Source: Bilabrum cf. latius (taxonomy: Eukaryota). Taken from it: a stretch of DNA of 64,000 nucleotides. Where the stretch lies: positions 682,001 through 746,000 of the forward strand of contig OZ237754.1 of assembly GCA_965178125.1 (NCBI GenBank), read 5' to 3'. Under the pieces are notes generated by a model that was not told where the DNA came from, did not search any database, and was given only the letters and a program-made list of their open reading frames with translations. The position numbers and the translations under genes are program-made. Below are positions 3,441 to 57,607 of this stretch, one piece after another (positions within the stretch are counted from its first letter, which is position 1; every line of letters starts with the position of its first letter).

Positions 3441-3619
3441 CAAATGATTTGCATCATAACATAGACAGAAGCTGCATGGTTTGGGAAAGGGTTTTCGTTC
3501 GAGAGAAGAAATCTATTTTGAGCTCCGGACGGCGTTTGAATTAAATTACAAAGTGCCCATTTTGTACCTAAACACGGGCAGTAAATTGCGTAGTATCTCC
3601 AGTCCTGGTTATAGTTAGT

Positions 3620-7487: not shown

Positions 7488-7723
7488 AGTAGCAGCTTGT
7501 CGAAAGTGAGAAACTCAGCGAGATAGCTGCTAACTTTCGTGTTTGCTGGTGTGTCTGGTTGCGTGTAGTATTGATGTGAAACGAAGGTTCATCCACGAGG
7601 TTCGTTCGGCACTTCCGGTGTGCTCGACTCGGGCACTTCGGCTCTTGCAACACAATAAATTAAGGTGGGACTTTACGCGACTGATACCCGATAAGTTGCG
7701 AAATAATCTAAACTTGGCGAAAG

Positions 7724-31232: not shown

Positions 31233-31400
31233 TAAATCAAGGATGCGAAAGCTTAAGCAAGTATCATTCGAAACAATACGGGCAAAATGCGCTCTCAAGA
31301 GCTGAGCACGAACGAACGAACGGATCTCCGTAGAATGGAACGTTCCATACGACACAGTCGCAACGATTTCACATTTCCGCATACCATCTCACCGTATTTG

Positions 31401-34400: not shown

Positions 34401-35346
34401 AGCCAGGATCATGGAGGGGCTGGAGTTGCTGTGGGACGAGACCACGGGGCTGTACTGCGACTGGGGACTGCAGGAGGCAGACGATCCCACCGCACACGCG
34501 GCGGGCTAGCGGCTGCACAACCAGCCCGTGCAGTCGGCGCCTCTTCTGGGAGATGCGCTGGGCCGCAGGCTAGGGGCGGGGACTGGCGTAGAGGCGGGCT
34601 GCTCGGCTGCGGGCGGCGGGAGGGCAGCGGAGCTGGAGCCCTTCTACAGCAGGTACATGCGCAGGGGCAAGGGCGTGCGCGGTCCTGCCGCGCGGTTCGG
34701 GTGCGTGTGTCACGAGGGGTACGCTAGCCTGCTGCCTGCGGTGCTGGGGCTGTTGGAGGATGATGGGGGCAGGGACAGCGACCGTCTCCGCAGGCAGCTG
34801 CAGATCCTGTCATCCACGGAAGGCATGATGTCGTCGTGCGGGCTGCGGTCACTCAGCAAGGGGAGGGGCATGGGGGGATACGCTGACGCCGAGGACGAGC
34901 GCAGGGTGAAGGGCATGTACCGCGATGCGGAGGATTATTGGAGGGGGAAGGTGTGGATGAATCTGAACTTCCTGGCTCTCAGGTCGGCGCGAAGGTACGC
35001 CGCGGGGGGCGGGCCCAACGCGGAGCTGGCTCGCGGGCTGGGTGAGATGCTTCGGTGCCGGATGGCGGGGTGCGTGACAGCCTCGTGGCAGTCGCAGGGG
35101 GAGATGCACGAGAACTTCGACGGGGATGTGACGAGTGCAGCGGGTGGTGATGCGGGTGCCGGTGGCGCGAGCTGGGTGGGTGGAATGCTGGCAAGCGTGA
35201 TTGGGGGTGGGGACGGCGGGGATGTGGCGAGTGAAGTCTGGACGCCGCGAGAGGCGGGTACCGGGGCCCATCCATTCACGGGATGGAGCGCGCTGGCAGC
35301 CAGGGTCGTGGCTGGCCGGATCGGGGAGGAGGAGGACTGGCAGTGA
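31401..35346 (+). CDS. MOGS: Mannosyl-oligosaccharide glucosidase (glucosidase I, GH63), 2 exons, 7 in-frame TAG
   Basis: RPNLYFG...SGMMW...LRHQAK[TAG]...WNVHDGRGFG; intron 31659-31749; PSRAVFPRGFLWDEGFH, GWIPREQILG, ANPP, FRWRG, FPSGLDDWPR, GLRSLS, YWRGKVWMNLNFL, HPFTGWSAL. TGA stop. Confidence 0.94.
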
Positions 35347-35562: not shown

Positions 35563-37292
<1,730 letters not shown>

Positions 37293-38126
37293 CTATTCTA
37301 AGCGGTGATTGATTGGGCAAAACAATTTTTTTCAAGTCTCGTCGACTATTTTAGTTATTCCAAAAGAGCAGCCTGCTTTTGCTTTACTGACTCGATAACC
37401 GATGAAAAATTCGACGTTTCAGTCTCAAATAACCCATCAGCTGCTGCTCGTTCCTCCTAAAGGTCTTACTTCAGCTCTTTCAGATTTCTCTGCAGAATAT
37501 ATTGCCAAGTTCAAGGAGTACGTTATGCGGTATACCGGTCTTCATTAATTTCCACATCAGATACCTTTTCTATTGATAAACAATTGACACTATGCCTGTG
37601 CAGCTTTGATAGGTGCTGATATAATGGCGTTCTTTGTGCGTCCGATCATGTTTGATTCAAACTCGGATCAAACAAAATACATTAAAATGCAAGACAATTG
37701 TTTTGATTCAAGTCGATTTATTAAACTACGCTGTTGGGTTGCATAATGCAATGTTTCAACTTCAAGCAGTCAGCTTGTTCACAATATTATTTATGCTGCA
37801 GTTATATAACTGCGATGTCAAATCAAGAGGAAATAGCTTAGTGATGGTCTTTTTACGCCGTTTTGGGTTCAATGTAGATATCAGAGTGAAAGTGTGGAAT
37901 GTCTCGTTGGTTCCGCTGGCGATCGCAACTAGGAAGGTGCAACCAAACCAACAGATTGCTTTGTGATTAATAGCCTAACCTGTTTGTGTTCAGGAGATGG
38001 AGGGAGATTGAGTATTCATACCGCAATAAATGTATCACTAATTGCACCAATATTTATATGAGAAATCAGTTACATTTAAGAGAATGATAAGATTGACTAC
38101 ACAGTTTTGAACCGAATTCACGTAGA

Positions 38127-39399
38127 TCAAACCAAATCATTATCCTGCAACGTGTCGTTAAGCAGCTTTGATGCGACCGCTTCAAATACTCTCTTGACAT
38201 TCCTAGTATCCAACGCTGTCACTGCATATGTTGCGATGGGCAGCTAAACCTACGTATGCTCTCTGTGCTCAATGATCTCTGGCGTGATGAACTGGTTCTA
38301 CAAATACTCAAACGCGTCATCATAGTCGTTTGGCCTCCCGTCGTAGTCATCAAATTGAAACTCTGGAATGAGTTCGCCGTCGGCATCAATTGGTTCTTCA
38401 CCTTTTTCGGTTAAATGCTGATACATGGGGTTCTTAACTTGACCAATGCCAACCTTCTCAATCTTCTACTGGAAAAGGTCATCCTTGTTCAGGAACAGTG
38501 TAATTCCAGACGAATCAAAATACTTCCCGGACCGTACGATGGAGTCAAATAACTCAGCTGCTTCGACAATGCGATTCATGGTACTGTCTTCGAACAGAAC
38601 TTGGTCATACTCCGAAGAGGCAGCAATGAAGAGGACGATATCCACGTCTGCGAAGAAGCGAAACCACTTACGGCGCTCTGCCCTCTGCCCCCCAACATCA
38701 CACACAGTCATGACAACTCCTCGAAAGTCGATCTTCTGCTCGTGCATACCAGTGGTGCGAACACGCGATCGTACAAAATCGTTCTTGTTCGGCATGTAGT
38801 CTTCGCGTGCAATGGTGTCGATTCTATCGAGGAAGTAGTCGGTCGTGTCCATCAATTGATAGTTTGCCCGCTCCTCGAATGCTTTCTTCATGGCCGGGTC
38901 AGCCCACAATGTCTTCATTGCCGCTGCGACTTCAGCCGTGAGCCCGTCCGGGCGCGCCAGGTCTTTCTCAGCGGCTTCGAATTCAGCGAGAGCCTCCTAG
39001 GATGCAGACCCCAGCTCGTACTCCTTGGCTTTGCAGTATTCCAGCATTGCCTGCATCCCACTAGCAGCGTTGCCTCGGATAGCAGAAATACGCTCGCGGA
39101 AATCTTTCTCTGTGTACTCAGCTCCAAAGTTGATGCGCATCTGCTTCATGACAGTAGACTTTCCGGATTCACCGGCACCTGGGAGGAAAGCATAGCACAG
39201 AGCTAGAGTTGCCATGCATGCGGGCGGGGGACAAGCAGAGTGCATTGCAGGCACCGTGACGGCAGATATAAATGAAGGCGTGCTCACCGAGCAGCAGAAC
39301 CTTGTGCTCCTGGGAAGAAGCTCGCTCCGCCTCCCTCAGCTACGATTCGAGTTCGGTATCAAACTTTGATGCAGCATCGGAACTTGCGCAGAGCCCCAT
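38127..39399 (-). CDS. Heterotrimeric G-protein alpha subunit, 2 exons, 6 in-frame TAG
   Basis: MGLCAS (myristoylation/palmitoylation site); intron 39287-39179; KVLLLG|AGESGKST, RVRTTG, DVGGQRAERRKW, LFLNKDDLF, TALDT.NVKRVF. TAGs at 39340, 38997, 38466, 38298, 38250 and 38244. TGA stop. Confidence 0.95.
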
Positions 39400-39705
39400 G
39401 ACTTTGTGCTGTGTTCTTGGGCAGCTGTGCAGCGAACCCAAATCTGGAAAACGATCCGGGAACGGCTTGCAGCACAGGAAAGGCAGACCAACAGGAAATA
39501 ATCCAGTCTCCACTTCGTTTCAATCGAATCGACCTGGGTAGCTAGTCTTGCTCGATTCTACTTGGCCCGAGCAATCCGGGGGGAGTTTGGGTGCGATTCG
39601 AGCGCTTGGACTCGTTCGTTGGGTAGCGGAACCATTGACCAAGCAGTGCGCGGCGCCTACAGGAACCTGCACAAATTGCACATCAAGAGCCAGCAAGACG
39701 CCGGA

Positions 39706-42700
39706 ATGTCATCGTCCCATCTTTCACGGCTAGAACACCTCGATTTAATTAGCAGAGTGTGCAGTGAGCTCGATGCAACGCTTGGCATGGCTGATCGGGA
39801 CCTGGCCGAGTTTATTGTCCAACTGGCGAAGGACAACCCCAGTGAATCGTCATTTGCGAAAGAATTGTCGGAAATGGACTCAGACATTAGTAGATAGGTA
39901 GCGGCAAGGCTATTTCGCACGGCGTCTGGAGCCGCGGGTGGTGCGCAAGGGCCGTAGGCTGCCAGCCGCGGGGGCACCACGGTCACGCTGCCCCGTGGGC
40001 CGGCTTCGGACACGCCCCGCCCACCCACAGAGGATGGCTCTCGGTAGGGTACAAGTAGGCGGCGGTCGAGGTTCGGGCCCGCGGCGGACGATGCCGCGGA
40101 GGGTGGCGACAGCCGGGAGCGGCGACACCAGGGGGCAGTCCCGCCTTCGCTCCCAGCTCTCAACGGCAGCGCAGCGGGTCCCCCAAGCCATGGTGCGAGC
40201 CGCCCAGCAGGCAGGCTACCGCCATCCGGAACTGCCACCATTGCCCCGCGGGCCGTCCTCCGCGGCACCATCTCGGCGCACTCGCCCTATGGGGCCTTTG
40301 TGAGGCTGCACGGGACTAGCGCGCCGGGCCCCGACGGTGGGGAGGGCGAGGGACTCGTGCCTCTGCGGAACCTGCCCGGCGCCGCGGCCACCGCCGCCGA
40401 CTTGCCGCCGGTGGGCACGCAGGTGTGGGTGCGCGTTGCCTCTGTGGCTGCGGGCGGCGAGCGGGTGACCCTGTCCATGCGGGGGCTGGACCAGGCATCG
40501 GGGGCCGAGGTGGAAGAGACCCGCGGCGCCGCGACGGGTAGTTCCGCAACCGGCGGTGCGCCGACGTACGGCTCCCTTCCCCCGGCATCTTCGGGCGCTG
40601 GGACATACCCACCGCACAACTCTTCCTCGTCCTCGTCCTCGTCCTCGTCGTACGCTGCTGTGGGTCGGCCGGGTGCCCATCCCGGCTCGGGATCGGGATC
40701 GGGGTCGGGCGCGGTGGGCGGCGCCGAGGCAGCGGCGCTGGCTGCCGCAGCGGCCCGCACCCGCCGCGCCCGCAAGCGCGTCCCCTCCCCTGAGCGGTTC
40801 GAGGTGGAGCAGCTGATCGCCTCTGGCGTGCTGCCCCCCGAGGCACACCCTGAGTACGACGAGGAGCACGGGCTGATGCACGTGGAGGAGAAAGGGGCCG
40901 ACGAGGAATTCGAGGTGGAGCTGGTGGAAGACGTGCCCGCTTTCCTGGAGAACATCTCGCAGGACAGGCAGGCGCGGGAGATGTCCCCCGTGCAGGTGGT
41001 GCGCAACCCCGACGGCACCCTGCAGCGCGCGGCCATGACCCAGTCGGCGCTGGTCAAGGAGAGGAGGGAGCTCAAGTACGTGCAGCACCAGCAGCTGCTC
41101 GAGTCCATCCCCAAGGACCTCTCGAGGCCTTGGGCAGACCCCATGTCCGGGGAGCAGGACAAGCACCTGGCGGCGGAGCTGGCGGGCGTGGGTGCGAGCT
41201 TCAACGGGCCGGCCTGGAAAGAGGAGCAGATGAAGAAGGCGGTGGCGTACGGCAAGCAGTCCTCGCAGCCCTTGCAGGAACAGAGGCGCAGCCTGCCAGT
41301 GTACCGGCAGAGGCCCGAGCTCATGTCCGCGATCCGAGGGAACCAGGTGCTGGTGGTCGTGGGCGAGACGGGCAGCGGCAAGACGACCCAGATGCCTCAG
41401 TACTTGCTGGAAGATGGGTATGCGCACGGCGGGGGAATCATCGGGTGCACGCAGCCCAGGAGAGTGGCAGCCACCTCGGTGGCGAAGCGTGTGTCGGAGG
41501 AGGTGGGGTGCAGGCTTGGGGAACAGGTGGGGTATTCGATCCGGTTCGAAGACTGCACCAGCAAGGAGACTTTGATCAAGTACATGACAGACGGCATGCT
41601 CATGCGTGAGTACCTCGCAGACGCGCGGCTGGGCCGCTACAACGTGCTCATCTTGGACGAGGCGCACGAGCGCACCATCAACACGGACATCCTCATGGGG
41701 CTGCTCAAGGACCTTCTGCGCGCCCGGCGCGATCTCAGGCTCATCGTCACGTCGGCCACTCTCGAGGCCAAGAAGTTCTCCGATTTCTTCTTCGGATGTC
41801 CCGTGCTCAAGATCCCCGGGCGCACCTTCGACGTCAAGACGCTCCACGTCAAGGAGCCCGAGGAGGACTACGTGGAGGCGGCGCTCCGGACCGTCATGCA
41901 CATCCACGTCAAGGAACCGAAGGGCGACATCCTCGTCTTCCTCACGGGGCAGGAGGAAATCGACTACGCCTGCGAGAAGCTCCACCAGCGCATGCAGGAG
42001 CTACCCAAGGACGTCCCCGAGCTCATCATCCTGCCCGTCTACGGGGCCCAGCCATCCGAGATGCAGTCCAGGATCTTTGAGCCCGCGCCCCCGCTCACCC
42101 GCAAGTGCATCGTGGCCACCAACATCGCCGAGGCATCGCTGACCATCGACGGGATCTACTACGTCGTGGACCCGGGCTTCTGCAAGCAGAAGGTGTACAA
42201 CGCGAAGCTCGGCATGGACTCGCTGCAGGTGGTGCCCATCTCGCAGGCCAGCGCGATGCAGAGGGCAGGGCGCGCGGGCCGCACGGGGCCCGGCAAGTGC
42301 TTCAGGCTATACACCAAGGCAGCCTTCGAGACGGAGATGCTGCCCGCCAGCGTGCCCGAGATCCAGCGCAGCAACCTCGCCCAGGTGTGCCTCCAGCTCA
42401 AAGCTATGGGCGTGCATGACGTCAGCAAGTTCGGGTTCATGGACCCCCCCACGGACCAGGTGCTGGCGGCCGCCCTCGAGCGGCTGTACGTGCTGGGGGC
42501 CCTGGACGAGGAGGGGCTGCTCACTCGCATTGGGAGGCGCATGGCGGAGTTCCCGCTGGACCCCGCCCTGGCCAAGGTGCTGATCCTGTCGGTGGACCTG
42601 GGGTGCAGCGAGGAGGTGCTCACCGTGGTGGCAATGCTCTCGGTGGACCAGGTCTTCTACCGGCCCAAGGACAAGCAGAGCGCCGCCGACCAGAGGCACG

Positions 42701-43260
42701 CGCAGTTCTACACCGCGGAAGGGGATCACATCACGCTGCTCAACGTGTACAAGAAATGGGAGGCCGCCAAGTTCAACACGGGCTGGTGCTTCGAGAACTT
42801 CCTGCAGGCCCGCTCCCTTCGCAAGGCGGCCGATGTCCGCAAGCAGCTGCTGGGCATCATGGACAGGCACAAGCTGGACGTCGTGTCATGCGGCCGCAAG
42901 CACGACCTGGTCCGCAAGGCCATCGTGGCGGGCTATTTCCCCAACGCCGCCAAGAAGGACCCCACGGAGGGGTACAAGACCCTGGCGGACGGACACCCCG
43001 TGTACATCCACCCCGGGTCGAGCCTGTTCCAGAGGCAGCCCGAGTGGGTCATCTACCACGAGCTCGTGCTCACCTCCAAGGAGTACATGCGCTCCGTGAT
43101 GGCCGTGGATGCCAGGTGGCTCGTGGAGCTCGCACCCCGCTTCTTCCAGAAGGCAGACGCCACGAGGCTCAGCCGCCGCAAGCGCCGCGAGAAGATCGAG
43201 CCGCTGTACGACCGGTTCAACCCGCCCGACCAGTGGCGCCTCTCCAAGCGGATGCAGTAA
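39706..43260 (+). CDS. DHX8: Pre-mRNA splicing DEAH-box helicase DHX8/PRP22 (PWI-like N-terminus, S1 domain), 3 in-frame TAG
   Basis: [25 protein letters not shown]-terminus, S1 (RGTIS..PYGAFV), [55 protein letters not shown]. TAGs at 39895, 39955 and 40045. TAA stop 43258-43260. Confidence 0.97.
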
Positions 43261-43389
43261 CCGCGAGTAGTGCGGGTACGGGCCTGGCTCTGGCTTCCTG
43301 TCTGCGTCCCGTTCGTGTGTGTTTGCATGTAGGTTTCTACGGAACGGATCGACTGTCTCTAACAGCTTACCATTCTGCCGCGGCGCCCG

Positions 43390-43773
43390 TCACACGGCTA
43401 GAATCATTGCCGTAACGCTCGCATGCACCTCAGAGTTTGCCGTGTGCACGTACTCGATAATCCCGTCGCTTGACGCATCCATGTACGACGATGTGGCGTC
43501 GTGCACGCCGGCTCCGGAGCCACCTTCAAAGACAGTCGTGTGCAAGACAACCTTCAAGTTCGATCCCTTCCGTCGCATCCTTTCCATCACTAGGGCGCTA
43601 ATTCGGTCCGCCAACTCTCTCGCTTCGCTGTGGTCGTACGACTTTTCCTTGAGCACGTGAGAGCACACCCGTTTGAGCAGCTTGGTGGCGTACTCTTCAA
43701 CATCGGCGAACTCGTACGCTTCATCCTCCACTGATTCCTTCTCTTGGTGGCTGGTCTTTGACTCTGAAGCCAT
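43390..43773 (-). CDS. Tctex-1 family dynein light chain
   Basis: 127 aa: VCSHVLKEKSYDHSEARELADRIS...LKVVLHTTVFE..GAGVHDATSSYMDASSDG matches the Tctex-1 pattern. TGA stop. Confidence 0.75.
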   Translation of the reverse strand: MASESKTSHQEKESVEDEAYEFADVEEYATKLLKRVCSHVLKEKSYDHSEARELADRISALVMERMRRKGSNLKVVLHTTVFEGGSGAGVHDATSSYMDASSDGIIEYVHTANSEVHASVTAMILAV

Positions 43774-43965
43774 TTTAGACGCAACTGGCAAGCTGCAAGC
43801 TAATACTAGTCAGGCCTGCAACTGGCTGACAATTTAGATCCCACGAACCGAAACGACGGATTACAGGTGTGATGAGTGTACTGCAATTGGTAAAGATGAA
43901 GCTAAATATCAGATGCGTCCGGCTTCCTTCGACACCCATTAACGTATCTTTGAACGAATTTTGGA

Positions 43966-46746
43966 ATGTGTGGAATCATTGCATTCATGTAAGTATAAAA
44001 TTAGGTGCAAATTGGCCGATATTTTGACTGAACCGATGGGAAGGGGATGAACCCCGAGTTTCTGAATTGGCGGTTTCGGCGCAAGGTGCGGGTGGTCTCA
44101 TGTAGCCCTTGCATGTTGAGGGTGGCACGGCTTTAAGCTGTTGAGGACTACAGCGTAGTATGATCAACTGGATATGAGGAGCCTGCGTGCTAACTCTGGC
44201 AGTGCCTTGAAGCCAGAGATGTGTCGCATGGTGGAGTTGGCGCTGCGTGCCCAAAGCGCAAAGCGGCTGCACATGGAGCTGCGCAGCCTCTTGTCGCGAG
44301 TTTATCGCCTGCAAGTGAATACACGCTATAGTCCACGCGAATGAATGGGCATTCTTGAGTGTCGGGTCTATCCCCTTTGGTGCACAGCGTTACCGGCACC
44401 GCTCGGCGAGCTGCTTCGATCAGTCGGCCTATCATGCACCCCACGGTCACTTCTCTCGCTCCCCGCTCTCTATCAGAATATACTTTACCTCGCAGTGGTA
44501 GCCGCCAGGCCCTGGAACTCCTCATCAAGGGTCTGGTGCGCATGGAGTACCGGGGCTACGATTCCTCCGGGGTAGGCATTCTGAAGCGCGGAGCCGAGGG
44601 GGAGCCGAACACGATCCAGGTGGTCAAGAGGAAGGGTAAGATCGTAAACCTGAAGAGCGCGGTAAGCGGCGGCCTGGAAGGCACCCTCGGGGTGGCGCAC
44701 ACCCGCTGGGCCACTCACGGGGCCGCCAACGACGTGAACGCGCACCCGCACTGCTCCCCCGACGGACAGGTGTGCGTGGTGCACAACGGCGTGATCGAGA
44801 ACCACGCCCTCCTCCGCAGCGTGCTGCAGGGCAAGGGCTACAAGTTCCGGTCCGAGACCGACACCGAGGTGCTCTGCAACCTCATCCACGACGTGCGGGC
44901 CAGCGCCCCCATGCTCACTCCCGAGGAGGTGGTGACCGCCGCGCTGTCACAGGTGGAGGGGGCATTCGGGATCGGGGTCATCTTCGCGGACCAGCCCGAC
45001 GTGCTCATCGGCGCGCGGCGAGGCTCTCCGCTGATCCTGGGCATAGTCAGCGATGGGACGGAGGGGGAAGGCAAGGAGGGCGAGGGCAAGGGGCACGAGT
45101 ACATCCTGGCCTCTGACGCCACTGCGATTCTCGAGTACACCAAGCGGGTGGTGTACCTGGGCGAGGGCGAATTGGTGCGTGCCACGAGGACGGGCATGGA
45201 GCTGTTCTCTCTGGATGTGGACGAGTCTGGGCACATCCACCACGCCGGGCACGAGTCTGCCAAGGAGGTCGCGGGGGTCGAGGGGGGGGAACAGGCGGAG
45301 GAGGGGGAGGGGGAGATGGGTGGTGGCGATGGACCCGCGAGCGGGGCTGGTCATGCCACGGCCGGATTGGGCGTGGTGGGTCGGATGTCTCCCCTGCTGA
45401 AGCCCAAGCCCAAGGGGGACGGGGAGGCGGCAGGGGGCGACCGCAAGAAGCAGGCCAGGCAGTCGCTGAAGGGTCTCTCCAGGCGCATCCCAGAGATCCA
45501 CCGCCTGGAGATGGACCTGCAGAAGATCGAGAGGGGCGGACACAAGCACTTCATGCTCAAGGAGATCTTCGAGCAGCCCGAGGTGCTGAGGAACTGCATG
45601 CGGGGGAGGGTTGACGCAGAGGCGGGGTCCATCCGCATTGGGGCCATGAGCGAGAGGCTGCCCCCCAGGGCGGGGGCGGGGACCGGCGGGGCAGCCACGG
45701 GGGGTGCTGGTGCTGCGGCGGCAGCTGCAGGGGAGGGAGTGGAGGTCGGGCCCACCGTCCTGGAGCGGTTCCTGGCTGCGCGGCGCCTTGTGATCGTGGC
45801 CTGCGGAACCTCCTTCCACTCGGGCCTGGTGGGCGAGTACCTGATCGAGAGCCTCGCACGCATCAATGTGGAGGTGGAGTACGCCTCTGAGTTCAGGTAC
45901 AGGAATCCGCTGCTGGACGAGAACGACGTGGTGATTGCCGTGTCCCAATCGGGGGAGACGGCGGACACGCTCGCAGCCATCCGGCTCGCGCAGGAGCGGG
46001 GCGCGCTCACCTTTGGGCTTGTCAACGTCATCGGGTCTAGCATCGCAAGGGAGACAGACGCAGGGGCCTACCTGAGGGTGGGTCCCGAGATCGGGGTGGC
46101 TTCCACCAAGGCCTTTACCGCCCAGGTGTGCGTATTCACTATGCTTGCCCTGCTGCTGGGCAAGGAGAAGGGCACCATGTCCGATGAAGACTTCAAGGCG
46201 GGGGCGGCGGCTCTGTGGGCCATCCCCGACACGATCGAGAGGGTCCTGACGGAGAACAAGGGACCTGTCATGGAGGTCAGCAGGAGCTTCCGTTTCGCTC
46301 AGAGCTTCTTGTACCTGGGTCGGGGGTACAACTACCCTGTGGCGCTGGAGGGTGCCCTGAAGCTCAAGGAAATCTCGTATATCCACGCAGAGGGGTATGC
46401 CGCCGCGGAGATGAAGCACGGGCCCATCGCGCTGATCGATGAGTTCATGCCCGTTGTGATGATCCTGCCGTCCTCTGACCCGACCTACGACAAGATCAAG
46501 AGCAATCTGGCAGAGGTGCGGGCCAGGTCAGGGGTGGTCATCTGCGTCACGGAGGAGAGCAACGAGCACATCGACGAGCTGGAGGCCCTGTGCGACTCGG
46601 TGATCACCGTGCCGGAGGTGCAGGACTGGCTGTCACCGCTCGTGACAGTGGTGCCTCTGCAGCTGCTGTCCTACTACATCGCGGACCTGAGGGGTTGCCC
46701 CGTGGACCAGCCCAGGAACTTGGCCAAGGCAGTCACCGTGGAATGA
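43966..46746 (+). CDS. glmS: Glutamine--fructose-6-phosphate aminotransferase (isomerizing), bacterial GlmS-like, 2 exons
   Basis: Exon 1 43966-43988 (MCGIIAF), intron 43989-44495 (GTAAGT...CGCAG), then IGSRQAL..KGL.RMEYRGYDSSG, AHTRWATHG, VHNG, SETDTEV, SQSGETADT, GVASTKAFT, ALKLKEISYIHAEG, PRNLAKAVTVE-TGA. Confidence 0.96.
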
Positions 46747-47036
46747 TTGTGGGAGGGGCGGTTGGTGAGCGGCGGGCACGGGGCGGCAAGGCCGCCAGGG
46801 GGGTTTGTTTGCTTCCCTCGTGCGCGGAACCTAGCGAATGCGGATCGAATCGAACGCATGCGCGGTCCTCGCGAGGGATGAAGAAACGCGCCATCGGAAG
46901 CATGGGCTGGTTTCAAAAAGAGTCAGAAGCCCTGCATGTGTCAGCGTGGATTGGTTGCAAAGTGATGTGTTTCGCAGCCATGCACTGCATCGATTCTGAA
47001 AAGACGGTCGAAACTGCAATGAAACTGGATGTTGAG

Positions 47037-47512
47037 TCAGCCACCGTGCACAATGATCCGGTTCTCCCTCTGTACGTAGATGCCCTCCTTGTACAGCCAG
47101 TCTCGGATTGCGACTCTGTGGTCACCCATTAGAATGATGGTGGGCCCGTGCACCCTGTCCGACTTCACAGTCGTAGAACAATGCAGCAACTTGCCCAAAC
47201 ACTTTGCCATATATTTCAAGTCCAAACTGCGTGCATGAAGCGGCACCAATTGTGTACAAAGCTAGCGTGCAACAATGCCCTGGTCTTCAAGGACGGCAAC
47301 CTGCTCTGCAGGGCTCGAATCGGCGCAAACTGATTCGATAGGGGCGCACCCCATTCTCACTCTTCATCCAAGCCAGTAACCGAGGTAATGGCCTTGCGCC
47401 GCGTTCGCTGCTGCGAGCGAATGTGCACCTTTGGAAGGTCTGTTCTTGTCCCCTGCGGGGCTGATTCCACGTTCATCAACTCCATTGTTCCACCTTCTGC
47501 TGCGCTTGACAT
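47037..47512 (-). CDS. Translation initiation factor eIF1/SUI1-like protein (divergent), 2 exons
   Basis: Exons 47512-47361 and 47226-47037: KVHIRSQQRTRRKAITSVTGLDEDLDLK..AK.L.K..HCSTTV...G..I.LMGDHR..IRDWL...I.VHGG-TGA. Confidence 0.85.
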
Positions 47513-47695
47513 GCTACTGCTTGATTCACTAATACTTTTACGGGTTGTACGACTCTTTATTCTTAGCTTAATCAGGTATAGAAGAGCAAGCCGCTGGATG
47601 TTGACATAACATCACACTACTGCCCCTACTTCCGGATTTTCGCATGGAAAACCAGACGGAACCGTGGACCCAAACCGACCTGCGAACTGGTGGGT

Positions 47696-48226
47696 ATGCC
47701 GAGTAAATTCGATGTCGATGTTAGTAAATAGAAGTCAACTGCGGAGGAGAAGGAGCCGCTGACTGCCCCGGCAGCAACGGGCGCGGGTGAATCGGGTGCA
47801 ACAGCACCGCCCGAGAGTTTCTAGCCGAGCAACTCTCCTTCTACAACGCCATCAAATCCCAAGGGGATACAAAACGCAATCTACTAGGCTACTATTGGTG
47901 AAGGTTTGCATCTGGGCAACGTATTTGTCCCTGCTGGGGTGCTCGCAGTTGGGGCCGCTGGTGCTGGTTTCTTGGTTGGAGGTCTGCCGGTAGCAGGGTT
48001 CTGCGCACTGCTTGGGGTCGCATTTCTTGCTATTCGAGCTGGGGCACACATGCCCGCAGGGAGCTCGAGCGGTGGCGGCGGTGGTTCGATGTCGAACGGA
48101 CGCGCGAACCGGAGGGGCAGGCGGGGGGGAGCGCGTGGAGGTGGCTCTGCTGGCGGCAAGCGGACCATGACGCTCCAGGACCTGCCGAGGGCCCCTGTCC
48201 GCAGCTGAGGCGGTGGGGCATGCTAA
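47696..48226 (+). CDS. Putative SelK/SelS-like membrane selenoprotein (3 TAG=Gln, candidate Sec TGA 48206-48208, TAA stop)
   Basis: Single frame from ATG 47696: hydrophobic segment(s), Gly/Arg-rich tail, then RTMTLQDLPRAPVRS-TGA-GGGAC-TAA. SECIS-like stem-loops lie downstream. If TGA is a stop, the CDS ends at 48208. Confidence 0.6.
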
Positions 48227-48545
48227 GCACGATGTACGATGCTGTGCCAGGCGCCCGTAAGGGGGATGTGAAGGCTTCAGCGCCACCCCTCCCCCTAGCA
48301 CGGCCTGGCACTCTCTCGATTATCGATCGTCGTGCTCTGCATGCCCCCCTGTCGCCCTCGCGGTGGTGGCTTTGATTCTCGCAGGATTGGGGTTAAGCGG
48401 TAGAGAGCCTATGGAGCATCGAATTGTAGCGTGCTCTTTCTTGCCGCCCCGTTCTCCTTGCCACCGTGCGCCGAAATAGGCAGGTACTAGGCTACCCACA
48501 CACTCATTGCATGCACCGGCACGACTATCGGAGACGTTCAGTCGT

Positions 48546-48683
48546 GCGGTGCATCACCGATGACGGCCGCCACGTCACGGCCTATTGGCCCTCTCTTGCT
48601 CCTTCCGAATCCGATCGGGGAGGGCGGAGCAAGTGAGGGCTGGCAGCGTGACGGCCTGAGGTCAAAGAGGTGCGGTGTGCTGC
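48546..48683 (+). promoter_or_regulatory. Candidate SECIS-like stem-loop in the 3' region of the putative selenoprotein gene
   Basis: Helix I gcggtgcatcacc / ggtgcggtgtgctgc; core ATGAC (48560) / TGAG (48657); helix II ggccgccacg / cgtgacggcc. The apical part is unusually long and has no obvious AAR. Confidence 0.4.
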
Positions 48684-48987
48684 ATTCGGCGCAGCATTCT
48701 TTTGGTGCCATTCTGTTGAAATGGAATATATCTTCTGCATTTCCGCCCCCGGAGCGATCAAATCAATCCACAACTTGAATGCAATCACGATGCGCGCTCT
48801 CGTCACGCCGTCGCCTGCGGTGTCGGGGGTGCTGTGCAGGGAGCTCCGCGACCGGCATTACCCATCTCGGTCACGCGGCATTGCCTTCCTAGCCTGGTTG
48901 CGATCGTTCATTGGCTGATCTGAGTTACAGGAAGAGGCGGCCGCACGCACTAGCACCAAGTGTATCCACTGCTGCTGCCACTTTGCA

Positions 48988-51900
48988 ATGGCAAAGGCAA
49001 CCGGCCGTACCGTCGACGTGACATTCAAAGAGTAGCTCCTGGGCATGTTTTTGCTCCCAGTCGTCCATGGGTAGGCGGAAGAAGACCCGCACCTGGGCGC
49101 ATACGTCGAGCGACTTGAGTCGAAGAAAGGAGGCAAGACGGAGGCGCAAACCAGCGGCAAGATCCTGCCAGGGATGCAGATTGTTGCGATCAATGGAGAG
49201 AGTACAGAGTTTTAGGACTTCGAATCTGTAATAGACAAGCTTAAGTCAAGCCCTCGGCCTCTGGTAGTCACGTTTCGTCATTTAGTCGATCTTGATTTTC
49301 GGGATGCGTACGATTTTAGCGTCTCGGAACAGAACTGCAGGCTAGAAAAACAGTACGCCGCATCCCAGAACGAGAGCATTCAAGCAAGAGACTAGTCCTG
49401 GTTCCAGTTCCTGAAGGAGCTCGGCGAAGACGGCCGGGACCCCGGCTAGCCGAGTGCGCAGCCGGTGCAAATGGGAATCCGGCGGCTGCACCGCACCGCG
49501 GAGGGTCTGATCCCCCTGGCCCGTCGCCCACAAGAATCCCGCACCGTCACAGACACCGTGCAGGAGGTCCGCACCGACTCTGCTCTCCGGCTCCTGGACA
49601 TGCACGCGGGGCCCTCGCTCTTCCCCGTGCCCGGCGTGGAGGCCCAGCCAAACCCGGGGCTCAGGGCCAGGGCCTCCACCACGGGGAGCAGCGGGGCCAC
49701 ACCTGCATCTGCAAGGAGCGGCGGGGTCGCGTCCACTTCGCCCGCGGGCGCACACGACGGTCCCGGCGCCGCCTCCCCTGCCCCTGCCCCTGCCCCTGCC
49801 CCTGCCACTGCTGGGGCCCACGCCCGGGCGGTCCCGTCGTCCGGCTCCGAGTCATTCGAAGCCGCGACAGCGGATCCGTCCACGTCCATGTTCAAGCGGT
49901 TCTGGTCCGAGGGTGGCGTCGGGGGCCGCATCCCGGACTGGCGGTCGCACGTGGCCCAGGCCATGGAGCTCCACCGGCACGAGAGGTCGGTGGTGGACAA
50001 GGCCATGGCCGTGCAGCAGCAGGCCGCCGACTGTGCCACACCCTCGGGTCTGTCCACCCCACGAAGCCAGGCATCGGGTGCACTGAACGGCGGTGCGGCG
50101 GTGGGGAACGGCCGCTCCACGCCGACCCCCTTGCCGAGCACACCTGTGCCGGCCAGCCCCTCCGCCGCCTCTGCCCCTGCCCCTTCCGCCGCTGGAGAGG
50201 CCTCGTCGGGCGGGGACAGCAGCGGGGCGGGCGCAGAGGGGGGAGAGCCTGGCACCCGTCGCTCAGCACCGGGTGATGAGGAGCCGCCCACGCCTGACCT
50301 GCGCATCCACACCCCCCAGGCCTCGGCCTCCACCCCGGCTCGCAGCACGTCAGGCGGGGGCCGTCGCGTGGCCGGCGGCACCCTCCCACCGGCAGGGAAC
50401 TAGACGTACGCGGCGGGCAGCAGCCCCGTGCACACGGCAGACGAGGACGCATTGGAGCTGCAGCGGGTGCTGGGCGCGGGCGGGTAGGGCCCCAAGCGGC
50501 ACACGCGCAAGGTCAGCGGGCAGTTCGAGGGAATCGGGGGCCCGGCACAGCAGAGGCGCCTCTTCCGCCTGCAGCGGCTGGTGCTGGCGGGGGTGCCAGC
50601 CCTGTATCGGCCAGCAATCTGGCTGGAGCTGAGCGGAGCCAACGCCAAGAAGGCACTGCACCCCGACGGGTACTACGATTCGCTGGTGAGCTGCGGTCCC
50701 GCCGAGGACGTGAGGTATGCCATCGGGAAGGACGTGAAGAGGACCTTCCCCGGGCAGCCCTTCCTCTCCAGCAAGAAGGGGCTGGACGCTCTGAGCAGGC
50801 TGCTGGGGGCGGTGGCCGTGCACAACAAGGAAGTGGGGTATTGCCAGAGCCTCAACTTCGTGGCTGCGGTGCTGCTGGTGCTGCTGCCCACGGAGGAGGA
50901 CGCTTTCTGGGTGATGGACGCGATGGTGAACGAGGTGCTCCCGGAGAACTACTTCGCCTCTCCCATGCTGGGGCTGAGGGCAGACCAGGAGGTGCTGGGC
51001 AAGGTCATCGACTAGAGGCTGCCTGCCGTGGGCACCGCCCTCCGCAAGACCGGCGTGCAGCTGCGGCTCTTCACGAGCGAGTGGTTCCTTGCCCTCTTCT
51101 GCTCCACGCTGCCCATGCACACGGTGCTCAGGGTCTGGGACGCCCTCTTTCTGTTCGGGGGCGAGGCCATCTTCAGGGTGGCGGTGACGCTGCTGTGGCT
51201 CAACCGACAGAAGATCGCGAAGGCCTCGGGGGATTTTGTGGGCATGTTCGCTGCCCTCCGCGGGTGCTGCGGCATACCAGAGGCGCACGACGAGCAGTTG
51301 ATCATGCAGGCAGCCTTCTCTGACAAGATGGCGGGGCCGGGGCGGGCTCGAGGCAGGGCCGGTGCGAGGAGGGAGGACGTGCCAGTGGACTGGAAGGGCT
51401 TCGGGATGGAGATGCTGACCAAGCTGCGGGCCGAGGCAGCGGAGGAGGTGGTGGACGAGCACAGGCAGCTGGTCCTGGAAGCCGAGCAGAAGAGAGCCAG
51501 GGCGGAGGAGAGACTGGCTCGGGCGCAAAAGAAAGCTGCTGAGCTGGCAAACAGGGAGGAGGAGGCAGGGGCGGCCAGTGCTGCTGGGGGCCGGGATTTG
51601 GAAGGCGGGGCTCAGGGGAGGGAGGAAGAGGCGGAGGAAGAGGAGGAAGAGGAGGCGGCTCGTAAGCAGGCCCAGAAGGAGCAGGAAGAGGAGGCGGCTC
51701 GCAAGCAGGCCCAGAAGGAGCAGGAAGAGGAGGCGGCTCGTAAGCAGGCCCAGAAGGAGCAGGAAGAGGAGGCGGCTCGTAAGCAGGCCCAGAAGGAGGA
51801 GGAAGAGGAGGCGGCTCGCAAGCAGGCCCAGAAGGAGCAGGAAGAGGAGGCGGCTCGTAAGCAGGCCCAGAAGGAGGAGGAAGAGGAGGCGGCTCGTAAG

Positions 51901-52944
51901 CAGGCCCAGAAGGAGCAGGAAGAGGAGGCGGCTCGTAAGCAGGCCCAGAAGGAGGAGGAAGAGGAGGCGGCTCGCAAGCAGGCCCAGAAGGAGCAGGAAG
52001 AGGAGGCGGCTCGTAAGCAGGCCCAGAAGGAGGAGGAAGAGGAGGCGGCTCGTAAGCAGGCCCAGAAGGAGGAGGAAGAGGAGGCGGCTCGTAAGCAGGC
52101 CCAGAAGGAGGAGGAAGAGGAGGCGGCTCGCAAGCAGGCCCAGAAGGAGCAGGAAGAGGAGGCGGCTCGCAAGCAGGCCCAGAAGGAGGAGGAAGAGGAG
52201 GCGGCTCGTAAGCAGGCCCAGAAGGAGGAGGAAGAGGAGGCGGCTCGTAAGCAGGCCCAGAAGGAGGAGGAAGAGGAGGCGGCTCGTAAGCAGGCCCAGA
52301 AGGAGGAGGAAGAGGAGGCGGCTCGCAAGCAGGCCCAGAAGGAGGAGGAAGAGGAGGCGGCTCGTAAGCAGGCCCAGAAGGAGGAGGAAGAGGAGGCGGC
52401 TCGTAAGCAGGCCCAGAAGGAGCAGGAAGAGGAGGCGGCTCGTAAGCAGGCCCAGAAGGAGGAGGAAGAGGAGGCGGCTCGCAAGCAGGCCCAGAAGGAG
52501 GAGGAAGAGGAGGCGGCTCGTAAGCAGGCCCAGAAGGAGCAGGAAGAGGAGGCGGCTCGTAAGCAGGCCCAGAAGGAGGAGGAAGAGGAGGCGGCTCGTA
52601 AGCAGGCCCAGAAGGAGCAGGAAGAGGAGGCGGCTCGTAAGCAGGCCCAGAAGGAGCAGGAAGAGGAGGCGGCTCGTAAGCAGGCCCAGAAGGAGGAGGA
52701 AGAGGAGGCGGCTCGTAAGCAGGCTCAGAAGGAACAGGAAGAGGGTGAAGAAAGTGGTGTCGCTGAACAGGTTAGCGCTACAGACGGCTTGGCGGAAAAG
52801 GCCGAAGTTGGTGAGGATGATGACCAGGATGGAGATAGTGGGGCAGACGACGGCGCTGACGGGACCGCTGCTGCCGGTGATGAAGCTGCCGCGAAGACGG
52901 GCGGGGACAAAAAGGGGAAGCGTCGCCGTCGACGGAGGAAGTGA
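48988..52944 (+). CDS. PDZ + TBC (RabGAP) domain protein with C-terminal charged helical repeat, 8 in-frame TAG
   Basis: PDZ: VDVTFKE[TAG]LLGM...SGKILPGMQIVAINGE...FESVIDKLKSSPRPLVVTF. TBC: LVLAGVPALYRPAIWLELSGA, IGKDVKRTFP, GYCQSLNFVAA, EEDAFW, WFLALF, LRVWD. One frame, TGA stop. Confidence 0.92.
51643..52743 (+). repeat. 39-bp coding tandem repeat (E/Q-EEEAARKQAQKE, ~28 copies)
   Basis: gaagaggaggcggctcg(t/c)aagcaggcccagaaggag(g/c)ag repeats with only two variable positions. Confidence 0.96.
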
Positions 52945-53129
52945 AATCGTCTCGAGTCTTCCGAGGATCGTACCTTGACCAAGCATGGGAAAGTAAGCCT
53001 GTCGATGCGCGGATCTAGACGATGCGTCAATCCAGTACAGAACTGAATCGCAGAAAGAATTATTTCAATTTTCAAGCATGCTCTGAGACGCCTCGGTCGA
53101 TCCTCAACCGCCGCGCAATTGAGCGTGGG

Positions 53130-55312
53130 TCATGTGCCCCGCTTCACCTGCGCTGCACCGCCCCTTGCTTGCATCAATGCCCAACCCCCCACCAGGACAG
53201 CAGCGGCCACCGCCGCCCCGATGAGCCCCGGCACCAAAACCCCGGCCCCGCCGCCGACAGCAGCACCCGTCTTCTCCCCACTGCTGCTAGCCCCAGCCCC
53301 AGCCTGGCTCTTCCTCCGGCCGCTGGCCTCGGACCCCACGTTCGCCCCCGAGTCGAGGTCCACTGCAAGCTCCTCCGTGGGCACCCAGTCCTTGGCCGCC
53401 GCGTTCCCCACCTTGCGGTCAAGCCCCATCGCCTCGCACGCCTCCTGCAGCGCCCCTCGGAGTGCCTCGCACGCCTCTGCTGCGTTCTCCTCCGTGAAGA
53501 CCATGGGCGGCTTGAACTTGAGCACGTTCTCCGCAGGCCCGTCTCTAGAGACGAGCACCCTCCTCGCCCTGAGCCCCAGCGCCACCCTCCTCCCCAGCTC
53601 CGTGGAGGGCCTCCTCGAGGCGCTGCTCTCCACGAGGTCGACTCCCACAAAGAGACCCAGGCCCCGCACATCGCCCACCACCCCGGGGAAGTCTGCCTGC
53701 ACCGTCTTCACGCCCTTGAGCAGCGCAGCTCCCACCGTGCGTGCCCTGGCCATGAGTCCCATCCGGTCGATCTCGTCCATCACCGCCATGGCCGCAGACA
53801 GGCTGGCCGGGTTACCGCCGTACGTGTTGAAATACGACATGCCGTTGTCAAAGCTCTCGGCCACTGCACGAGTCGTCACCACGGCCGCCACTGGGAAACC
53901 GTTGCCCATGGGCTTTCCCATGGTCACGATGTCAGGCACCGCCCCCTGTTCCCCGGGAGTGCCAGAGGCACCCACAGCCTAGAACGCCCAGAAGTGTGAG
54001 CCCACTCTGCCGAAGCCCACCTGCACCTCGTCCGAGATGCAGACACCCCCTGCCCGCCTGACCCTTTCGAACACATCCTTTAGGTAACCCTTGGGCGGTA
54101 TCACCTGCCCACCGCAGCTGATCATGCTCTCGCAGTAGAATGCCGCCACCTTGCGCCCCCGGGCAACCGCCGCGTCGATCACGCGACCCGCGTCCGCAGC
54201 GTACGCCTTCCCCACCGCCTCGTCCTGCCAGCTGCCGCGGTGCGGGCCCCTGTACGCGTCTGGGAGCGGCACCTTGTGCACCCAATCCTTCTGCGAGTGC
54301 CCCCCCGAGCCCTCGTACTTGTAGGGGGAGAACTAAACCACGGTCTGCGTGTGCCCGTGGTAGGCGTGGTCCACCACCACCACGTCCTCGTGCTTGGTGT
54401 GCGCCCGGGCCAGACGGAGGGCCAGGTCGTTTGCCTCAGACCCGCTGTTCACGAAGTAGACAACGCACAGTTCCTTGGGCAAAGTGGCGAGGAGCCTCTT
54501 GGCGTAGCGGGCCATGGTCGGGTGCAGGTACCTGGAGTTGGTGTTCAGCACCTCCAGCTGCTTGCCGACGGTCTTTGCCACGTGCTTATTGCCGTGACCG
54601 ACATGTGCTACGTTGTTCTGCGCGTCTAAAAAGCGCTCTCCCTTTTCGTTGATGAGGTACTGCCCTTCGCCGCGTACCGCCAGCAGCGGATCGTGTGCGT
54701 GGTGGAGACTGCGAGAAAGAATGGCTCAAAATGATAAATTTCGTTCACTGCACGTTGGCAACTCAACTTAAACAGTGATAAGAACAGGCTGACAGTCGCT
54801 ACCAAAAGTAAGCCGGAGGCAGAGAGCTGGCTGCTACCGGCGGATTGATGTTGCGGGAACATCCCAACCGATTCAATGGCAAGTCAGCGCTCCAAACCGC
54901 AGATAAGGGCATGATATCGGATCGTACGAACTTCTACCGCAATGAAGCATGCATTTACACCCTAAGAAGCTTAAATACCGTGTGTAGGTCCGGGATGCAA
55001 CCCTAGAAGCTGGTATCAAACTTGCATCGGCAGCCAGTGTTCCCAGCAGCGCAATTTCGATCGCCTAAAGTTACTACAAACTTTATCCGCGATATCTAAT
55101 CCAATAGCTGCGTTGTACCAAACCACGGCTGTTACATCGATCCAAACCGCGACAGAAACTAGCGCCGAAGTTCGAACTCACGTCACATTGGGTCCAACCA
55201 GAGCCTTGCGAAGGGCTAAAATCTCGGCCTTATCCATAGGTCCATCCACCCCCTCGTTCTTTTGCTTGGTTTCAATCTCCAAAGTCGGTGAATCGTAACC
55301 AGAAGCCGCCAT
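53130..55312 (-). CDS. Class-III PLP aminotransferase fold, PHYKPL/ETNPPL (AGXT2L)-like phospho-lyase, 2 exons, 2 in-frame TAG
   Basis: Exon 1 55312-55182 ([17 protein letters not shown]), intron 55181-54709, then VRGEGQYL...[62 protein letters not shown][TAG], [36 protein letters not shown] stop. Confidence 0.93.
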
Positions 55313-55613
55313 GCTTGTCGTATTTTGCTGCAAGATGCGTACCAAAATTCGACAGAGAATGCACTGATCACACCAAATTGCCGAGCAGAATCCGAAGCAA
55401 CTGGCGCACCGTGGCCGTTGGGCTGCTATTTCTGGTGCCCGCCGAAGTCACAATGTCGCCCGGCATGCAATGAATGCTCGTCTGGACATACTGGCAGGTG
55501 CGACTCGGATGCTCCCACCGGTGGAGCCAGTGGCATCAGCCTCTGAAGGAGACAGCGGAAAGCGCGCCCGCTCCAAACCGAGTCGGGTTGCTGGACCCTT
55601 TTACCCGCAAGCA

Positions 55614-56129
55614 TCACTCCGACTTGCTAGCGCCCTCAGGCACGTGCCGCATCACAGCCACAAACCTCGGCCAGTCAAGCAGCCTGTGCCGTATCATAGC
55701 GGCAGCAAACAAACGCGCCGTGGCAAATGCAATTTGCACAGTTGCTGGGACAACAGCGCTCAATATTGCACCCCATGTACTGATACTTTCTAAGGTGACT
55801 CCATCGACCCTGTCTATGGAGCATGCCGACAGAAGAGCGACAGCCACGACTAGGCTCGCCAACGATGGAGCCTTGCCAGCCTCAGTCAAACTGTCAGAGA
55901 AAACCATCAGCATCGCAGAATGAATGAAAATACGATAAAATGCAGAAATTGAGCCCCATGCATGATCAGCTATGCACTGGTGGGCTGACTGAAAAATCGG
56001 TGACGTGTCAATCGCATCAAGAGCTCCAAGCTCAGCGCGACAAATAATGTATTCCGAGCCTGCAACGGCAGTGGATGCAATAATAGTATAAAACAAATAA
56101 CTACCTGATATCTCCCACGGTGACAGCAT
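55614..56129 (-). CDS. Hypothetical small membrane protein (171 aa)
   Basis: ATG-to-TGA ORF with several hydrophobic stretches, divergent from the SDR gene. No family recognised. Confidence 0.4.
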   Translation of the reverse strand: MLSPWEISGSYLFYTIIASTAVAGSEYIICRAELGALDAIDTSPIFQSAHQCIADHAWGSISAFYRIFIHSAMLMVFSDSLTEAGKAPSLASLVVAVALLSACSIDRVDGVTLESISTWGAILSAVVPATVQIAFATARLFAAAMIRHRLLDWPRFVAVMRHVPEGASKSE

Positions 56130-56242
56130 GGAATACGGTCAGCAAATGTTGCAGTTTGCCGCATTTTCGTCTGGGGTTCCGGTTTAGGTCGGCTTGGGTG
56201 ACGTAGCATCCGAACCCCATTTAGAGGAACTTCCGGGACGGT

Positions 56243-57607
56243 ATGCTTAACTTCTTCAGATAGCAGCCGTACTATGCAGTCGGTGGCGCAGTTGCACTTG
56301 CGACTGGCCTGTATGCTGTCCGGAGATACTTTGCTGGCGGTGTCAATTCGTATGTTGCGGGGGACCAAAACTCTAGGCATTGCGGCGGCTCTGTCGTCGT
56401 AATAACTGGTGGTAACACCGGGATAGGGTTCGAAAGTGCAATCGATATGAGAAAGTGAGCAAATGCACCAACATGACTTCCCGTTGAGCGCGTTACATTG
56501 GGCTACGTGCATAGCTGTTCTGCACAATCGTTGTTCTGGCGCAGGCGTGGAGCGCACGTAGTTCTCGCATGCCGCTCAAAGGAGAGGGCATCTGCTGCAC
56601 AGAAACGTTTGGATGCGATGAAGCTGCCAGGTTCCAGCGAAACGATGCAGCTGGATCTCGCGGACCTCGATTCCGTTCGGTCGTTCGCCAGAGACTTCCA
56701 GGCCAAGTTCGATCGGCTCGACACGCTGATGAACAACGCGGGCGTGATGCACGTGGTTGGAACAGAGCGAGAGGAGACGAAGGACGGATTCGAGCTGCAG
56801 CTGGGCACCAATCACGCTGGGCACGCCCTGCTCACTCTGCTGCTCATGCCAGTGCTGCGAGCCACGGCTGCAGCTGCAGCAAGCAGCAGCGGCGGCAAGC
56901 CAAAGGATGGCCCTGCATCGGGAGCCGGCAGCAGCCGGGCAGATGGTGACCCGGTTGCAACCGCGGACGTCCGCATCATCAGCGTGGCCTCTCTGGCGCA
57001 CGAGACCGGCAAGGTGGAGGAGCGCGACCCGCACTGGCTGCGCCCGGGTGCCTACAAGCCATGGCTAGCCTACTCTCAGTCGAAGCTCGCCAACCTGCTC
57101 TTCGCCTGGGAGATGCAGCGCCGCTTCGACAGCGGCGTGGACCCCGCCGCCGCCCCCCTGCGTGCCTTCTCCTGCCACCCCGGCGTGGTCATGACCGAGC
57201 TAGACCGGAACATCCCCAACATTGCCTGGCTGCGCCCCATCATGTACTCTGTGCTGGGCATCTTCCTGAAGACCCCCTCAGAGGGCGCACAGACCCAGCT
57301 GTACCTGGCCACAGCCCCCAAGAAAGTGCTGGACACGCACAGGGGAAGGTACTTCTCCGACTGCGCGAGGAAGCCGTCTCCCAACCCTCAGGCCGAAGAC
57401 CCGGCGTATGCCAAGAAGATGTGGGACCTGACGCTGCCCATGCTGGGGCTGAGCGAGGAGGAGGCAGAGGCAGCCGGCCTTGGTGTGGCCAAGGACTGCA
57501 AGCGGCTGGGCGTGCGCTGGGGGGAGCGTGTGGTGAAGCAGCCGGAGGCTGGGGAAGAAGGAGAGACGAAGAGCAGCCAATCGTCAGAATCAAAGAAAGA
57601 AGTCTAA
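56243..57607 (+). CDS. Short-chain dehydrogenase/reductase, retinol dehydrogenase RDH11-14-like, 2 exons, 1 in-frame TAG
   Basis: MLNFFR[TAG]Q + N-terminal TM + VVITGGNTGIG; intron 56455-56544; GAHVVLACR, LDLADLDSV, NNAGVM, GFELQLGTNH.GH, YSQSKLAN, HPGVVMTEL, GAQT. TAA stop. Confidence 0.93.

Follow-up and report, generated by a model that had tools for sequence, protein, structure and literature searches.

We analyzed a stretch of 64,000 nucleotides (contig OZ237754.1, positions 682,001 to 746,000, forward strand; this whole stretch is called the window, and positions are counted from its first letter) for the meaning that its genes give to the codons UAG, UAA, and UGA. The window has a G+C content of approximately 60%, and both of its strands carry ordinary eukaryotic nuclear genes in a conventional layout. 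Using Pfam, we recognized genes for a TrmE/MnmE-type GTPase, a NatA auxiliary subunit, a PA-domain/alpha-galactosidase protein, glycosyl hydrolase 63, enolase, a G-protein alpha subunit (G-alpha), the helicase DHX8/PRP22, a Tctex-1 dynein light chain, glucosamine-fructose-6-phosphate aminotransferase (GFAT), eIF1/SUI1, a TBC RabGAP, a class-III aminotransferase, a short-chain dehydrogenase (SDR), an ankyrin protein, and a ubiquitin-like protein. Three very long frames of 2845, 2284, and 1273 codons have no known domain. The introns seen in the enolase, G-alpha, eIF1, and SDR genes are short (approximately 100 to 135 nt) and of the GT..AG type. In this window, UAG is a sense codon for glutamine (Gln), and UAA and UGA are the stops, UGA being the commoner of the two (TGA at 16 to 17 of 20 gene ends). 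Frames with in-frame TAGs include the following:

1449 to 3545, minus strand: TrmE/MnmE-like GTPase; 4 TAGs, ends with TGA.
7712 to 16249, plus strand: giant frame for a repetitive protein; 2845 codons, 14 TAGs, no TAA or TGA inside, ends with TGA, no Pfam match.
19950 to 23771, plus strand: frame without annotation; 1273 codons, 17 TAGs, ends with TGA.
24534 to 31388, minus strand: frame without annotation; 2284 codons, 25 TAGs, no TAA or TGA inside, ends with TGA, no Pfam match.
31663 to 35346, plus strand: glycosyl hydrolase 63; 6 TAGs, ends with TGA.
36411 to 37289, plus strand: last exon of the enolase gene; 4 in-frame TAGs, at 36432, 36912, 37146, and 37197.
38127 to 39173, minus strand: exon of the G-protein alpha subunit gene (Pfam G-alpha, E value 3.8e-87); 5 TAGs, ends with TGA.
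39502 to 43257, plus strand: DHX8 frame; 3 TAGs, all in the nonconserved N-terminal part.
48919 to 52944, plus strand: TBC RabGAP; 8 TAGs, ends with TGA.

The 15 frames that we regarded with confidence as coding (15,992 codons) contain 95 TAGs but not a single TAA or TGA in frame; when the same DNA is read in its two remaining frames, TAA occurs 35 and 71 times. TAG makes up approximately 13% of the Gln codons in these 15 frames, next to 158 CAA and 480 CAG. Since CAA, the Gln codon ending in A, is not rare, a TAA synonymous with TAG should have occurred approximately 31 times, as scaled from the CAA:CAG ratio, and none was seen (Poisson P = 2.6e-14; binomial P = 1.8e-12). When only the 11 Pfam-supported frames were considered (8,887 codons), there were 37 TAGs and an expectation of 6.9 TAAs (P of approximately 1e-3). 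A preliminary description of this DNA had claimed that UAA is decoupled from UAG and never occurs internally, and within the window the tally bears this out. The same description counted 39 TAGs and no TAA in two long frames, which agrees with our 14 and 25; its length of 2841 codons for one of them is correct from the first Met (2845 from stop to stop), but the length of approximately 2232 codons for the other should be approximately 2282. We also scanned the flanks of all TAAs that have 40 open codons on each side for coding scores. Coding-like flanks were found for 2 of these 77 TAAs, one of which lies antisense to the aminotransferase gene, against a background of 14 of 283 TGAs; the scan discriminates poorly (33 of 287 TAGs pass), and it serves as a negative check for TAA only.

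The identity of the amino acid is given most directly by enolase. Three of the TAGs in its last exon, at 36912, 37146, and 37197, fall in alignment columns that hold Q in 117, 109, and 117 of 117 homologues, respectively, and the one at 36432 falls in a variable column. In a relative with 98% identity (P0004), three of the TAG sites of the window are occupied by Q, and the enolase stops exactly before the fourth Gln site, as expected of a gene called under the standard code if a TAG follows. A second relative with 83% identity (P0005) has Q at all four sites and the same C-terminus as the window. The last TAG lies 30 codons upstream of the end of the gene and is followed by conserved sequence.

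The TAGs are also retained in RNA. Contigs of three sequencing runs (X5 to X7) have the three enolase introns (35818 to 35936, 36069 to 36167, and 36312 to 36410, all GT..AG) precisely removed and are otherwise identical to the window, and the resulting joints were not seen in a DNA run (X1), which identifies these contigs as derived from RNA of the same organism; the RNA nature of the three runs rests on these spliced contigs. Spliced contigs covered enolase from 36411 to 37254 and from 36411 to 37317, and G-alpha from 38085 to 39175 with the intron at 39176 to 39284 removed, without any differing letter. The four enolase TAGs and the five G-alpha TAGs are unchanged in them and are, therefore, present in mature RNA and not edited. 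In X7, the enolase contig runs as far as 37317, 25 nt past the TAA, and the G-alpha contigs of X5 and X7, which come from one study, stop at 38085, 42 nt past the TGA. Between 37536 and 38069, there was next to no depth in X5 to X7, while the DNA run X1 continued. Contigs cannot show the ends of RNAs, and an uncovered part is no evidence, so we used the RNA 3′-ends neither for nor against any reading of the code.

At the other side of the code stand the TAAs that close genes:

37290 to 37292, plus strand: TAA terminator of the enolase gene; a strong case.
43258 to 43260, plus strand: TAA terminator of the DHX8/PRP22 helicase gene; a strong case.
57605 to 57607, plus strand: TAA, the first in-frame stop of the SDR gene (RDH/POR-like); a weak case.

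Enolases in the PDB align to within 2 to 5 residues of the enolase TAA, and none of 102 homologues extends beyond the C-terminus of the window's protein. Reading through this TAA would add 108 codons up to the next in-frame TGA, and this extension has a coding score of −0.04, compared with 0.30 for the gene body. Human DHX8 aligns up to residue 750 of the 752-residue query, i.e., 2 residues before the TAA, at its own position 1216 of 1220, and the ends of 117 of 120 homologues fall between −1 and +3 residues from the end of the window's protein; the read-through of 70 codons scores −0.19, compared with 0.38 for the gene body. As for the SDR gene, homology stops approximately 50 residues upstream of the TAA, and a TGA comes 6 codons after it, so that read-through adds only 6 residues. 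The preliminary description had put TAA at the expected C-termini of four proteins, i.e., these three and a selenoprotein candidate. All four of the codons it cited are indeed TAA, and the ends of the homologues uphold its claim for enolase and DHX8; the SDR case is weak, and that of the selenoprotein candidate is conditional (see below). Its statement that all other genes end with TGA is true for 16 further genes. Altogether, the 20 recognizable gene ends comprise 16 TGAs, 3 TAAs, no TAG, and the selenoprotein candidate, which ends with either TGA or TAA. If TAG made up 15 to 25% of the stops, the chance of finding none in 20 ends would be 0.003 to 0.04.

Several points weigh against this reading of the code. 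The coding frames are themselves bounded by TAA and TGA, and the zero count of TAA is thus partly a matter of construction; independent support comes from the frames matching full-length homologues and from the sequence beyond each TAA, which is not coding-like. Of the 95 TAGs, 56 sit in the three long frames without a Pfam match. The sample is one 64-kb window, for which alone "never internal" holds, and its 20 gene ends are few enough for occasional termination at UAG to be missed. The enolase of P0004 breaks off at a codon that is expected to be TAG but might be TAA, and the five G-alpha TAGs, lying in variable columns, do not point to Gln by themselves. Furthermore, no tRNA gene was found within the 64-kb window and no eRF1 gene is among its recognized genes, which leaves the decoding mechanism as something we infer.

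We considered four other explanations. The ordinary code 6, in which TAA and TAG both encode Gln and TAA is just rare in a GC-rich genome, could draw on the G+C content of approximately 60%, on the minority share of codons ending in A (CAA versus CAG), and on the small number of TAA stops observed (three to four). However, the expectation of 31 TAAs already allows for the GC bias, the homologues of enolase and DHX8 do not continue beyond the positions where TAA stands, and neither the 108-codon nor the 70-codon extension looks like coding sequence, so we hold this explanation to be very improbable. The preliminary description had likewise excluded code 6, and its reading of UAG as sense and UAA as a dedicated stop is supported by the codon statistics, the TAGs at invariant Gln columns, the TAAs at conserved C-termini, and the RNA contigs that keep the TAGs. 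That the code is the standard one, with the TAGs being true stops in pseudogenes, lying in unrecognized introns, or being edited to CAG in the RNA, is a formal possibility to which the three TAG-rich frames without a known domain could lend themselves. It would have to accommodate frames of 2845, 2284, and 1273 codons that lack TAA and TGA and yet hold 14, 25, and 17 TAGs, as well as TAGs at invariant Q columns of enolase, and it is refuted for enolase and G-alpha by the spliced RNA contigs, which keep the TAGs with no differences; we give it practically no chance.

The possibility that UAG, like reassigned UAG codons elsewhere, encodes another residue (Leu, Ser, Glu, Lys, or Tyr) would be in line with the G-alpha TAG columns, in which V/I, E, or D dominate among the homologues. 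These columns are variable, though, and thus have little weight, whereas three enolase TAG columns hold Q in 109 to 117 of 117 homologues and the relatives with 98% and 83% identity have Q at the same enolase sites, which makes another residue highly unlikely. A dual, context-dependent UAG that is sense internally and a stop near the end of the mRNA, comparable to what Condylostoma or Blastocrithidia do with other codons, is somewhat less remote, but still improbable. The observed transcript contigs end near stops, which would fit a position-dependent mechanism if contig ends could be taken for RNA ends, and a small share of genes ending at UAG might have escaped a sample of 20. On the other hand, none of these 20 genes ends at a TAG, every conserved C-terminus that we checked is closed by TGA or TAA, and the last enolase TAG, 30 codons before the end, has conserved sequence after it. 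Within the limits of the window, we regard code 6 as excluded, and likewise an amino acid other than Gln at UAG and a standard code combined with pseudogenes or with editing.

We consider it very likely that the window belongs to the nuclear genome of a GC-rich protist, probably a stramenopile, and that the cytoplasmic ribosomes of this organism translate UAG as Gln and terminate only at UAA and UGA, with UGA being the commoner. UAG would be decoded by a tRNA-Gln with the anticodon CUA, probably derived from the tRNA-Gln with the anticodon CUG. In such an anticodon, C34 pairs only with G. Following the wobble rules, C34 of the putative tRNA-Gln(CUA) could not pair with the A of UAA, and UAG would be read while UAA would not. 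The eRF1 of the organism would have lost or weakened its recognition of a G at the third position of the stop codon and kept that of UAA and UGA. The preliminary description proposed an eRF1 and a CUA-anticodon tRNA of this kind, and the same conclusion has been drawn for Iotanema (PMC5304391) and for ciliates (PMC11687900). Changes in the N-domain of eRF1 have been described to accompany codes of this kind (PMC5304391; PMC11687900).

The decoupling of UAG and UAA itself is already known and has been in print since 2017. Panek et al. (2017) reported a nuclear code with UAG as Gln and UAA and UGA as stops for Iotanema spirale (Fornicata), for which they argued for a tRNA(CUA) and pointed out a T32G change in eRF1 (PMC5304391). 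Iotanema resembles the organism of the window in the assignment of all three codons, in the minority share of UAG among the Gln codons (approximately 8% in Iotanema versus 13% here), and in the proposed mechanism, i.e., a tRNA-Gln(CUA) together with an altered eRF1 (PMC5304391). However, Iotanema is an anaerobic metamonad known from its transcriptome, with UAA as the main stop (PMC5304391), whereas the window comes from a GC-rich genome, carries a gene for a TrmE-type GTPase, has its best matches in stramenopiles, and uses TGA as the main stop. McGowan et al. (2024) added the ciliates Hartmannula sinica and Trochilia petrani as cases of UAG as Gln, and they cite Protocruzia tuzeti for the same assignment and Scotinosphaera for UAG as Ser (PMC11687900). 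In Hartmannula, Trochilia, and Protocruzia, as in the window, only UAG is reassigned to Gln and UAA stays a stop, but UAA is the firmly fixed preferred stop in these ciliates (PMC11687900). The window, with approximately 60% G+C, a conventional gene layout on both strands, and stramenopile best matches, is not ciliate-like. NCBI translation table 15 (TAG as Gln), which is in use for recoded phages (PMC9523058), describes the coding here as well; those are viral genomes, unlike the cellular nuclear genes with spliceosomal introns found here. Code 6 has been reported from many ciliates, hexamitin diplomonads, some ulvophytes, and Amoeboaphelidium (PMC5304391; PMC11687900), which share UAG as Gln with the window but differ in that TAA here is not a sense codon and ends conserved proteins.

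As to the lineage, the best named matches of enolase were Cafeteria (67%), followed by ochrophytes, oomycetes, and Blastocystis, and those of DHX8 were oomycetes, Pelagomonas, a diatom, and Ectocarpus (67 to 69%). In an enolase tree of 24 rows, the window, P0004, and P0005 formed a clade (100/99) that was sister to Cafeteria with weak support (77/98). The G-alpha protein gave best identities of 35 to 43%, with neither a close relative nor a named near match, and was of no help for the taxonomy. No named close relative was present in the collections searched. From the enolase and DHX8 matches and the enolase tree, the organism is probably a stramenopile near the bicosoecids, a tentative placement, as the tree is of a single gene with limited sampling.

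A scan of metagenomes with the enolase exon did not recover P0005; among the best 80 of 593 confirmed relatives, the closest of the matches listed was 66% identical. Ten of the 11 metagenome enolase loci translated without an in-frame stop and are, therefore, uninformative on the code, and the locus L064, with 3 TAAs and 14 TGAs in the matched frame, reads as a gapped, split match. Sequence identical to the window between 35400 and 51400 (no differences, in long contigs) occurs in runs under three different organism labels, and small shares of it occur in two metagenome-labeled runs. The organism of the window may be an associate of other organisms or a contaminant of their cultures.

We found no stramenopile with UAG as Gln and UAA and UGA as stops in the literature by title or abstract, including that of 2025 and 2026, supplementary code tables being outside this search. 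What is new here is probably the lineage and the GC-rich, TGA-dominated setting. We tentatively suggest, at somewhat less than even chances, that the code limited to UAG as Gln arose independently in a hitherto unsampled stramenopile lineage near the bicosoecids, in a GC-rich genome with UGA as the dominant stop. If so, the code cannot be put down to codon capture under AT pressure, because the genome is rich in G+C and the dominant stop is UGA and not UAA. The public DNA and RNA runs would then allow the suppressor tRNA and eRF1 to be read directly, outside the ciliates. UAG and UAA were long believed to be constrained to one meaning, and a split is described for no more than a handful of lineages (PMC5304391; PMC11687900). 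A further independent case, from a different supergroup and with a GC-rich genome and UGA as the main stop, would be a data point against a mechanistic coupling of the two codons, and it would test whether reassignment requires UAG to become rare first. In practical terms, gene prediction under the standard code fragments this organism's genes at each TAG, as has apparently happened to the truncated P0004 enolase in the protein collection, so that the annotation of its genome needs table 15. The putative pair of tRNA-Gln(CUA) and eRF1 would be of interest for amber-codon engineering in eukaryotes.

Two small genes lie between DHX8 and the TBC RabGAP gene and bear on the use of stops:

47037 to 47363, minus strand: eIF1/SUI1 gene; one intron (47227 to 47360), spliced out in three runs; TGA directly after the conserved C-terminal motif.
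47697 to 48226, plus strand: selenoprotein candidate, a small glycine-rich membrane protein; TGA at 48206 to 48208 and TAA at 48224 to 48226.

For the selenoprotein candidate, a single membrane stretch is predicted, and its tail is rich in Gly and Arg. The in-frame TGA is followed by five codons and then the TAA. The TAA ends the gene only on condition that the TGA encodes selenocysteine, which makes the gene a conditional and weak example of a TAA stop. RNA contigs cover 47681 to 48745, i.e., approximately 500 nt beyond the TGA, which is far more than at the neighboring genes, and the region from 48555 to 48672 contains a stable hairpin (z of −3.84) that carries AUGA and GA motifs. No Rfam SECIS family matched between 48150 and 48900 at E values up to 10, where only miRNA models came up at chance level, and Rfam gave no match at gathering scores in the whole window. 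The product is possibly a SelK/SelS-like selenoprotein.

The frames described above contain several repeats. In the 2845-codon frame, a 54-nt unit is repeated in tandem 67 times (91% matches) at 8216 to 11899 on the plus strand and encodes an 18-residue Ala/Pro-rich repeat; the local G+C content is approximately 72%, and all six reading frames are open there. The C-terminal half of the same frame has basic helical repeats that look IQ-like by eye and have no match in Pfam. The TBC RabGAP has a Glu/Lys/Gln-rich repeat in its C-terminal part, encoded at 51640 to 52744 on the plus strand by 28 copies of a 39-nt unit (97% matches). The contigs of all four runs break at 40620 to 40650 and at 49762 to 49818, with many loose ends and, at the first site, a very high summed depth; we read these sites as simple or dispersed repeats within the DHX8 and TBC genes. 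In the interval between enolase and G-alpha, a 155-nt stretch (37361 to 37515) matches another long contig of the DNA run with 13 differences and may be a dispersed repeat or a second allele.

The DHX8 gene (plus strand) and the Tctex-1 dynein light chain gene (minus strand) converge at 43258 to 43392, with approximately 130 nt between their stops, and one X5 contig covers both. The share of TAG among the Gln codons varies by gene. It is 17 of 69 in the 1273-codon frame, where the third-position G+C is low, and 0 of 18 in GFAT and 0 of 12 in the SDR gene, both of which have a high third-position G+C. Enolase, presumably highly expressed, nonetheless has its four TAGs.

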